From: Carcharhinus longimanus
Taxonomy: Eukaryota
DNA length: 64,000 nt
NCBI GenBank assembly: GCA_030264375.1
Contig: JASCQW010000112.1
Coordinates: 31,642,764 to 31,706,763 of the forward strand
Direction: 5' to 3'
The notes under the pieces are model-generated. The model saw nothing but the letters and a program-made list of their open reading frames with translations, searched no databases and was not told the origin of the DNA. Below, piece after piece: positions 17,933 through 36,629 of this stretch. Position 1 is the first letter of the stretch. Each line of letters opens with the position of its first letter. Made by a program: the position numbers and the translations under genes.

Positions 17933-18108
17933 CACCATTTTTTCATTGCTTGAAATAGCTGAGGAAGTGGACAGGGCCTGACTTGATCCAGTTCCAGGTT
18001 TCAAAACTGTATCCATGTTGGATTCCTTCCAGTCATTGTTTGCTGTTGTAGGTGATTTCCCTGTAGTAACAGATCCCTGTGGGAGTGCTGGCCAATTTCC
18101 ATCGTTAG
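17933..18108 (-). CDS. PPP1R13B: ASPP1 exon (ANDGNWPALPQG...NDWKESNMDTVLKPG...NEKMV)
   Basis: cctaattag acceptor, gtaggt donor (a tandem GT donor would end the exon 3 nt earlier); 176 nt, phase 1->0; ANDGNWP matches ASPP1. Confidence 0.92.
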
Positions 18109-21510: not shown

Positions 21511-22920
21511 AGGTAGCTCATAAAAACATGATTACTTTTCCAAATTCAAAACTTATTCTATTTAACGACAGAAGTTTTAAGTTTGTGCAGAAATGTAAAA
21601 ATGATTTCTTTAATACTATCTTAATTCAAAATTAGCAATATATTTGAATGTTTTACATTACAATTTTATCATATATATCACAAAGTGCAAAGTATACATT
21701 CTATTTGTCTACAATGCCACAATTGGTTCTCAGCAAGTGTAAGAAAGGAAACTTAATTAAAAGAAACTGTACACCAGCTAATTCTTCCAATTTTCTGCTC
21801 ATCATCCATTTCTGAAAGCATCAGTTCACTTTATTTGGCACTACATAATGTGTTAATTCGTAATACAATTATCCATGGGTTTTAGATGTAAATCCATCAG
21901 TTTTGGTTATGGCAAATTTAACAATGCGCCACTTAACCACCAGTTCACTGCATGGGTTGTTTAAACACAACCCAGCCTACTAAAAATTGTTTGGTTGTTT
22001 ACTTACTATTTACTTATTTACTATTGTGACAATTTCGTAAAATCAAATTTCAACTTTTGGGCTATTTTGATTTATGAACTCATTTTGTTCCTTGGATGGG
22101 ATTTTTATTTATTTTATAAAAGATTGTCAAGCTAGAAAGAATTTTTGCAATTAAAAAATTAACTTTCCCTGTTCTTGTATGTAAATTTAAAAGTTTTAAA
22201 ACAGTCTGCATTATATTAAGGTGTCTCTGGAAGCTTAAAAGAAAAAAGTCTTTAAATGCCTGACAAGCTCAACATTATAGAATTTCAATCACAACTACTA
22301 CTTTCACAAGATCTTGATTTAAAATGGGTGAAGATGACAACTTCTCTTGAAAAAATGAAAAAAAAATTGAGAGCTTACTAGTAAATCAACATGAACAACA
22401 ATTATATTGAGCATTTGCAAGATAAACAAAGGAGAAAAACTTTCAGTCCACCTTCAGGTTTTCCATAAAGAAAACTGAATCACAAATAGATCTACTGAAA
22501 TTATATAAAACCGTGACTTTGCCTTACATATCAACTACTGCAGAATTGTTCATGGCCTTTGCAAAACTACTGTAACATTACATTTGGGGGAGCATTAAAG
22601 AATTCTCAATATTTTGTACCATTAGACCACTATAATCAATGGCAGGCTATTATAATCACTGAATATTCAGTTTTGAGGAGTTAAAACAGGTGAAAAGATT
22701 TCATTCAGTTTTGAACAGTCAATCATAAAAGGAAACTTCATGCACCAGGCATATACAAACACATGCATCAGTTAGATATATTAAATATGATTAGATTAAA
22801 AAAACCCTTAAATAGGATGCCAGATTTAATTAGGGATGCATTATTAGGGGATTGTTGCATTCAAAATTATAACAAATTACATCAGTCAGTTCAATAAAGC
22901 AGAACTGTATAAAGACGTAC

Positions 22921-23034
22921 AACCCAAGCATCTGCTTTCATAGTTTTTAAAATGCAAGGATGAACCAGAGTCAAGACCCACATCCAAATTAGACACCACC
23001 CAGGAGCCGGTCAGCTTGTGTCTAAGCATTTCAT
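22921..23034 (-). CDS. PPP1R13B: Putative ASPP1 cassette exon B (DEMLRHKLTGSWVVSNLDVGLDSGSSLHFKNYESRCLG)
   Basis: Pyrimidine-rich acceptor tattttctgttctattatacatag, donor gtacgt; 114 nt, phase 1->1, open in the ASPP1 frame; shares W.VSNLD with exon A. Confidence 0.62.
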
Positions 23035-23402
23035 CTATGTATAATAGAACAGAAAATAGAAGACATATAACTGTAGAACACATTAGGTTTAAATTTTAAA
23101 TATTAGATGCATTTTTAGAAACAAGATTAAAATGTTACCATTTAGTGCTTTTTGATTGAAAACATACAACATGAACATTTAGCTCTACCACGTTTATTTA
23201 CATCTACATTTGGCTGCACAATAACACTCACTTGTATTTACAATAGATTCATAGGATTAATTTGTAACAAAAGTATTAAATGTAACCCGGAATTTTCCAA
23301 ATGTCACTTCTAAGGCAAGCAGAATGATTGTTTTATGCAAGCTTAAAGTATACCGCAGAAAATGTCCTTTAAGCAAAGTCAGTAACAGTTCCACAGACTC
23401 AC

Positions 23403-23558
23403 AATGTAGTTTGTCAGGAACAGAAGCTGCCAAGTGGTTCACACTATGATCTGGAGACTTTAGGGAGGCAGCAGAAGAAATTAAACCAGGATCCACTATG
23501 ATGTCTAAATTAGAAACTTTCCAAATCCCTGGAGGTTTTTTCAAACTGCCATCTGATT
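23403..23558 (-). CDS. PPP1R13B: Putative ASPP1 cassette exon A (ESDGSLKKPPGIWKVSNLDIIVDPGLISSAASLKSPDHSVNHLAASVPDKLH)
   Basis: Acceptor tttgacttcttggacag, perfect gtgagt donor; 156 nt, phase 1->1, open in the ASPP1 frame. Confidence 0.75.
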
Positions 23559-36427: not shown

Positions 36428-36629
36428 CAGATTTTGCCGTAGTCATAACATAGCCATCACTGCTAGATACAATCAGTGACTGAAGTTTTAAGACCTCTCC
36501 TGGTGATGACAGGTTACCTTCTGGTCTAGTTGCAGTAGAAACTTGGATGTAGGGTCCCACAGCAGCAACACGACCGGAGGTATTAGAGTGCGTCTGTGGT
36601 ACTGGTGTGCCATTAACTCGATTCAGCTG
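36428..36629 (-). CDS. PPP1R13B: ASPP1 exon (QLNRVNGTPVPQTHSNTSGRVAAVGPYIQV...TAKS)
   Basis: cttttccctttagCAG NAGNAG acceptor, gtaaac donor, 202 (or 199) nt, phase 0->1; RVAAVGPYIQ is conserved in ASPP1/2. Confidence 0.95.

Follow-up and report, generated by a model that had tools for sequence, protein, structure and literature searches.

What do two small neighbouring exons of equal phase, lying in one long intron of a shark ASPP1 gene, add to the protein, and where do they come from? The question is raised by a stretch of 64,000 nucleotides of the Carcharhinus longimanus genome (contig JASCQW010000112.1), which is called here the window. An earlier note on this DNA had proposed that the two exons, named here A and B, descend from an ancient exon duplication and are optional or mutually exclusive, changing the number of copies of a motif in the protein. 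In the present work this proposal is followed through gene models, contigs of related species and the paralogous gene iASPP.

The ASPP1 gene in the window

ASPP1 is a partner of phosphatase PP1 and of p53. The minus strand of the window contains most of the ASPP1 gene (PPP1R13B), the first exons being located outside it. The identity between the exons of the window and a shark ASPP1 model is mostly above 90%, and the Pfam domains of the ortholog are those of the ASPP1 architecture: an RA-like N-terminal domain, a coiled coil, a proline-rich region, ankyrin repeats, and SH3. In the tree the gene of the window groups with ASPP1, whose clade has a support of 99/97; this ankyrin-SH3 tree does not resolve how ASPP1, ASPP2 and iASPP branch off from one another.

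Exons A and B are flanked by two constitutive exons (Table 1). Use of the short donor of the upstream one makes this exon 90 nt shorter, removing 30 residues directly before the cassette exons. Some shark models without B (P0011, P0019, P0009, and P0016) are equal in length to B-bearing ones, which points to other length-changing splice choices elsewhere in the gene.

An ASPP1 intron also holds, on the same strand (40898-40762, minus), a lone and intact classic-cadherin exon of 137 nt. It shows AG/GT ends, an open frame and a Pfam Cadherin match (E 4e-9), its top protein match is of 69%, and no second DNA copy was found elsewhere in the genome. It may be an orphan, or else a fragment that the assembly has misplaced.

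Table 1. Features of the ASPP1 cassette-exon region and of the iASPP motif exons. Positions are those of the window, except where a locus of the same genome is named.
Feature	Position	Strand	Description
Upstream constitutive exon	36428..36629	-	phase-1 donors 36428 (long) and 36518 (short); from exon comparison and contig loose ends
Tandem acceptors of the upstream exon	36629 and 36626	-	
Cassette exon A	23403..23558	-	156 nt, phase 1-1; motif core WKVSNLDI at 23523-23500
Second acceptor of exon A	23552	-	6 nt inside the exon, giving a 150-nt form; only in models such as P0008
Intron between A and B	23035..23402	-	368 nt; removed when both exons are included (joint "skips 368, CT..AC")
Cassette exon B	22921..23034	-	114 nt, phase 1-1; motif core WVVSNLDV at 23002-22979
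Two UGCAUG hexamers	22739..22767	-	153 and 176 nt downstream of B
Downstream constitutive exon D	17933..18108	-	176 nt, phase 1-0; motif copy WKESNMDT at 18031-18008
iASPP motif-1 exon (same genome)	L007:1018-917		102 nt, phase 1-1
iASPP motif-2 exon (same genome)	L006:9199-9123		77 nt, phase 1-0; after the motif-1 exon

Structure and mutual likeness of exons A and B

The lengths of the two exons, the gap between them, their common phase and their open frames are all as the earlier note had described them, and both exons show AG/GT ends. The alignment claimed for their peptides also holds, with 10 identities over 18 positions. Its BLOSUM62 score of 49 was matched by none of 5000 shuffles, nor by any of the 46 further candidates for an exon (open, with AG..GT ends) in this intron (best scores 24/27 across shuffles and intron candidates). 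At the DNA level the likeness of A and B is that of chance (241 of 2000 shuffles reach the score), and in the protein it is limited to about eight residues, the profile scores being negative beyond this core.

The common core of A and B can be written W-x-[VI]-S-D-L-D-[IV]. The residues W, S, D, L, and D are present in 100% of 26 distinct A blocks and in 90-100% of 41 distinct B blocks, while B varies across species at most of its other positions. Searched against the shark's own genome, each exon peptide matched its own exon and, at chance level, one other place; since they missed the iASPP copy described below, these searches are insensitive. The exon peptides had no match among PDB sequences, Pfam or the ESM Atlas.

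Both motif copies of C. longimanus carry Asn (at 23511 and 22990 of the window) where nearly all other species carry Asp, and one related shark has Asn at the first-D position in B only. Gene conversion is an unlikely cause of the Asn in both copies, since A and B differ at silent sites. RNA editing was discarded as an explanation of the D/N difference, the genome agreeing with runs X1 and X2.

Splicing of exons A and B

Eight runs, of 12 listed, were compared. Their contigs come from related species, their RNA origin was guessed, tissues are not recorded, and contig depth is no measure of expression. The exact removal of GT-AG introns in the contigs indicates that they derive from RNA, and the refutation of mutual exclusion given below depends on this.

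A direct joint between A and B (23403-23034) is present in three of the eight runs, namely X2, X9 and X10. The joint of A to D (23403-18108) was found in X1, X2 and X4, and that of B to D (22921-18108) in X2, the loose ends of B in X9 and X10 reading into the next exon. Other loose ends show the upstream exon running directly to D, with both cassette exons skipped (X1 and X4). The short donor of the upstream exon is used in these two cases and also before A in X2, while X10 joins the long donor to A. One X10 contig spans the upstream exon, A, B, and D; no exon joint came from X3, X6 and X7. Inclusion of B only was seen in none of the eight runs, and it is present just in models P0015, P0020 and P0044. 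Contigs thus show inclusion as well as skipping at canonical splice sites: A and B are optional, additive and independently included cassette exons. The runs differ in their joints.

These joints in shark contigs bear out the first of the two alternatives of the earlier note, that of optional exons. The second one, mutually exclusive exons, would suit the tandem arrangement, the equal phase and the homologous core, but it has practically no probability left given the direct A-B joints, the presence of both exons in 22 of the 43 shark models among the matches listed and the reading frame, which is kept when both exons are together. Near A and B, no docker/selector-type repeat and no strong inverted repeat were found.

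Two UGCAUG hexamers, which we take to be RBFOX-type sites, are located downstream of B. The chance of finding two of them in 250 nt is 0.003-0.007, six patterns having been tried, and the distal hexamer is retained in a loose end of X10. The pair is a possible candidate for an inclusion enhancer of B. The supplements of an RBFOX2 paper (PMC5771670) contain no Ppp1r13b splicing row.

Conservation and age of the exons

The exons were tallied by pattern match among 120 of 423 matches and up to 15 members of each cluster looked up; two variant B cores were admitted by hand, and isoforms of the same species are non-independent. Among the matches listed, the 43 shark models hold both exons in 22 cases, only A in eight, only B in three and neither in ten. 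Exon A is present in four of the eight ray models, and both exons in six of the seven models from chimaera. Among the bony vertebrate models listed, A appears in 18 of 23 from ray-finned fish (B in none), in three of five from lungfish and in all six from birds, B in the single crocodile model, and both exons in the single coelacanth model. Frogs (10 models) have both exons in eight cases and A in one; turtles (14 models) have both in two, A in four and B in eight; and squamates (33 models) have both in two, A in 25 and B in six. Of the 104 mammalian models listed, 75 carry B and none carries A.

Since A and B are found in models of cartilaginous as well as bony vertebrates, both exons are, on the evidence of these models, older than the split between the two groups. 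The age supposed in the earlier note is sustained in this way, with models from chimaera to human. Annotation, and not the genomes themselves, suggests reciprocal lineage losses, of A in mammals and of B in ray-finned fish. The earlier note had also placed both exons outside the canonical human ASPP1 sequence. Exon A is absent from the mammalian models among the matches listed, but B is present in a predicted human isoform (P0136, XP_016876608.1).

At a shorter distance, exon B of the window differs from X10 at two of 114 positions, and exon A at six of 157, as compared with 46 of 323 positions in nearby intron pieces (P 8e-5 and 5e-4, respectively). Outside the core of A, the ratios of non-silent to silent changes among sharks are 7:6 (X9), 4:2 (X10) and 7:4 (X7), taken from partial and non-independent lists. 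With so many amino-acid changes in A beyond its core, the dN/dS signal is not clean.

A motif common to ASPP1 and iASPP

A third copy of the motif is present in the constitutive exon D. When a matrix built from iASPP only was run over 78218 scan windows, the D copy ranked first, A third and B sixth; two repeat-derived non-coding matches lay above B, and one of these also above A. The matrix built from A and B only, run over 90644 scan windows of the iASPP locus, placed both iASPP copies at ranks 1 and 2. The iASPP exon layout, a phase 1-1 exon and then a phase 1-0 exon with a motif in each, mirrors that of ASPP1, with A/B and then D. Among 42 retrieved iASPP proteins the two motifs occur together in 37, and four of the other five are seemingly partial or isoforms without the region; both iASPP copies are, in these sequences, apparently constitutive. 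The iASPP locus also contains a large proline-rich exon (L007:3326-4252) with several repeats in tandem, each about 15-21 residues long and built on an LDRAPSPR-like unit.

The exon D copy scores 16.6-17.5 in all 57 cartilaginous-fish models. Its W is still present in 66 of 68 placental models, and in these the score is 8.0 at most. Judged by these scores, the copy is decayed in placental mammals.

In the ASPP family as a whole, the motif was matched in 12 of the 96 representatives whose N-terminal part is of sufficient length, against 0.7 expected. Ten of these matches are vertebrate ASPP1- or iASPP-like proteins (partly by construction), another is seemingly spurious, and the last, a single copy in a protein of a sea urchin, may be due to chance. 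The motif is absent from four lamprey proteins and from three named teleost ASPP2 proteins, and one hagfish protein has a D-like copy. A possible resemblance of human ASPP2 was discarded, no motif exon being prominent in 100 kb of the ASPP2 locus of this genome (5195 of them N bases).

As is characteristic of short linear motifs, the core forms a conserved island within a disordered region. The conservation is that of its alignment columns, and the disorder is supported by a weak model and by iASPP. The single-chain model, which is of poor quality as a whole (mean pLDDT 42, even RA and SH3 unresolved), shows no secondary structure and pLDDT values below 50 at residues 330-554. The region of human iASPP that bears the motifs is described as disordered in the accessible part of PMC4486954. 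The suggestion that A and B change motif number agrees with the contig joints and with models from chimaera to human.

Origin of the exon pair

The eight-residue core, the equal phase and the adjacency of the two exons make an old tandem exon duplication the likeliest origin of A and B, as far as their sequences can tell. The duplication claimed at the outset is upheld in part: the exons are adjacent, of the same phase and homologous above chance, but over a 22-residue block A does not come out as closer to B than to the matching iASPP exon. When the columns of this block were resampled 10000 times, A-B ranked first among the three pairings of A, B and iASPP motif 1 in 2346 cases. Neither the tree nor the comparison of cores and blocks resolved the order of exon and gene duplications.

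Another explanation is that A and B are not duplicates, the motif having arisen independently in neighbouring exons or one exon having derived from the D copy. Short motifs arise easily; beyond the core there is no likeness between A and B in protein or DNA, and in this species the alignment score of A with D (54) exceeds that of A with B (49). However, across species the core score of A-B (34.6) exceeds those of A-D (20.2) and of A and B with iASPP motif 1 (28.6 and 28.8, respectively). In addition, A and B both share phase and position with the single iASPP motif-1 exon. A non-duplicate origin is consequently regarded as improbable.

A known class of events resembles the pair in being ancient, tandem and formed by homologous coding exons, namely the tandem duplicated exon substitution events (PMC9741552, accessible part). 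Those events exchange one exon for the other, whereas A and B add up. PPP1R13B is absent from the accessible main text of that study and from one of its supplements, as expected if human retains B only.

Possible functions of the motif

The reading favoured here, held with moderate confidence, is that of an old duplication after which splicing sets the copy number of a predicted docking motif in ASPP1. Docking appears to be the likeliest function because the island of Trp, Leu and Asp is invariant, occurs in two to three copies within a probably disordered linker and is kept in two paralogs. Each of A and B would add one copy of the predicted motif, and splicing would set the motif count of ASPP1 between one and three. 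In this linker the motif would bind a folded partner that iASPP would have as well, the most plausible candidate being a protein of the cortex or of junctions by which the ASPP1-PP1 complex is positioned, and more copies would lead to tighter binding by avidity. In placental mammals exon B could be nearly an on/off switch for the motif, since A is missing from every placental model among the matches listed and the copy in exon D is decayed.

iASPP reportedly binds Keap1 through a DLT motif, which is presumably located near motif 1. Keap1 binding was rejected as the conserved function, DLT being found just upstream in none of the 37 iASPPs with motif 1. Myo1c is a reported partner of the iASPP disordered region, through residues 1-290 and 382-552 (10.1101/870998; PMC8562848; both in their accessible parts). 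The Caenorhabditis elegans homolog functions with only its N-terminal helix and C-terminus (PMC12543280, accessible part), so junction targeting need not use the motif. By analogy with the worm protein, this argues that the motif may be a vertebrate add-on rather than a core targeting signal.

Three other functions have been weighed against docking. The motif could be a caspase cleavage site, in which case A and B would add cuts that release the C-terminal half, which binds p53 and PP1, in apoptosis. Caspases favour a small residue after the Asp, a proline there blocks cutting, and the motif's invariant Trp is too far from the Asp, by six positions on its N-terminal side, to be part of such a site. 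In the A blocks the Asp is followed by I in 22 of 26 cases and in the B blocks by V in 32 of 41, so that A and B mostly lack the small residue; in iASPP motif 2, P or L follows in 30 of 38 blocks. For this function speaks the ending of the A and B motifs in S-D-L-D, similar to the SSLD294 site at which caspase cuts human iASPP, a site with reported conservation from zebrafish to human (PMC4767446, accessible part). SSLD294 is very probably within iASPP motif 2, where WRESSLD is present in many retrieved iASPPs (the human sequence is not among them). The same study, in its accessible part, mapped only D91 and D294, neither of them at the motif-1 position that matches A and B. Overall, cleavage at A and B is rather unlikely.

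To about the same low degree, the exons may be phospho-regulated or length-changing spacers, the core being a kinase site without a dedicated partner. The S-x-x-D of the core agrees with the CK2 consensus; A and B hardly vary in their Ser or Thr at +3 and their Asp at +6, and the remainder of both exons drifts. However, Trp and Leu are equally invariant and would be unneeded by such a kinase, and in shark iASPP motif 1 Ala replaces the motif Ser.

Slightly less probable still is that the motif folds back onto the ankyrin-SH3 domain of its own protein, tuning autoinhibition. The disordered region of iASPP does bind its own Ank-SH3 in pull-downs, most of the binding coming from 120-290 and 290-382 (10.1101/870998, accessible part). 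Against this, an array of human iASPP peptides lists no binder between 211 and 307, a segment expected to span both motifs, and the iASPP fragment 249-482 is reported as non-binding (PMC4486954, in the part accessible for both results).

Prior records and the human exon

RefSeq automatic models already hold A, B or both, such as XP_078418577.1 (basking shark), XP_007886443.1 (chimaera), XP_016876608.1 (human X7), and XP_006515859.1 (mouse X1). These ASPP1 or ppp1r13bb entries are predictions only, whereas the paralogy of the exons and the motif are described here. The human exon B inserts 35 residues, that is, 105 nt. A PPP1R13B splicing event at chr14:104210948-104211054 has been tabulated, without annotation, for colon adenocarcinoma (PMC4446417, accessible part). 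Its inclusion drops by 25 points in the tumours, a change shared by 94% of the 17 matched pairs, and its length is 105 nt by the coordinate convention of the table, checked on the rows of ATP2B4, FLNA and SYK. The event is probably human exon B, a match made by gene and length, not by sequence. In the accessible main text of that work it occurs once, as a marker in a table row.

Regarding iASPP (PPP1R13L), the same core occurs twice on phase-matched exons, like A/B and D in ASPP1. In the retrieved proteins both copies are apparently constitutive, and only the second has a published role, that of the cut site (PMC4767446, accessible part). No description of the motif, of its sharing with iASPP or of the exon pair was found in the full-text literature covered, a scope that leaves out most subscription journals and some splicing tables, and literal motif strings had no occurrence in it. 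The accessible parts of PMC2715230, PMC10240065 and PMC11655644 hold nothing relevant, and those of 10.1101/2022.02.15.480428 and PMC6377682 give background on the subject. The exons are already in databases, and a motif number tuned by splicing is a known kind of event; what appears to be new is the motif of ASPP1 and iASPP, together with a probable human splice switch for it.

Significance for the ASPP family

The positioning of vertebrate ASPP proteins in the cell is stated to be an open question, and their N-terminal halves have been called poorly conserved (PMC12543280, accessible part). A bolder proposal, offered as a tentative one that is more likely wrong than right, is that one common partner docks on a repeated Trp-Asp-Leu-Asp motif of both ASPP1 and iASPP, and that the tumour-regulated exon B would turn placental ASPP1 into a competitor or a mimic of iASPP, its antagonist, at the cortex or at junctions. 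If this were true, iASPP would bear the motif constitutively and placental ASPP1 only when exon B is included. The predicted motif is short, mutable, conserved in jawed vertebrates and common to ASPP1 and iASPP, and human exon B may serve as a natural splice switch for it. Studies that use an exon-skipped ASPP1 cDNA would miss any partner of the motif.
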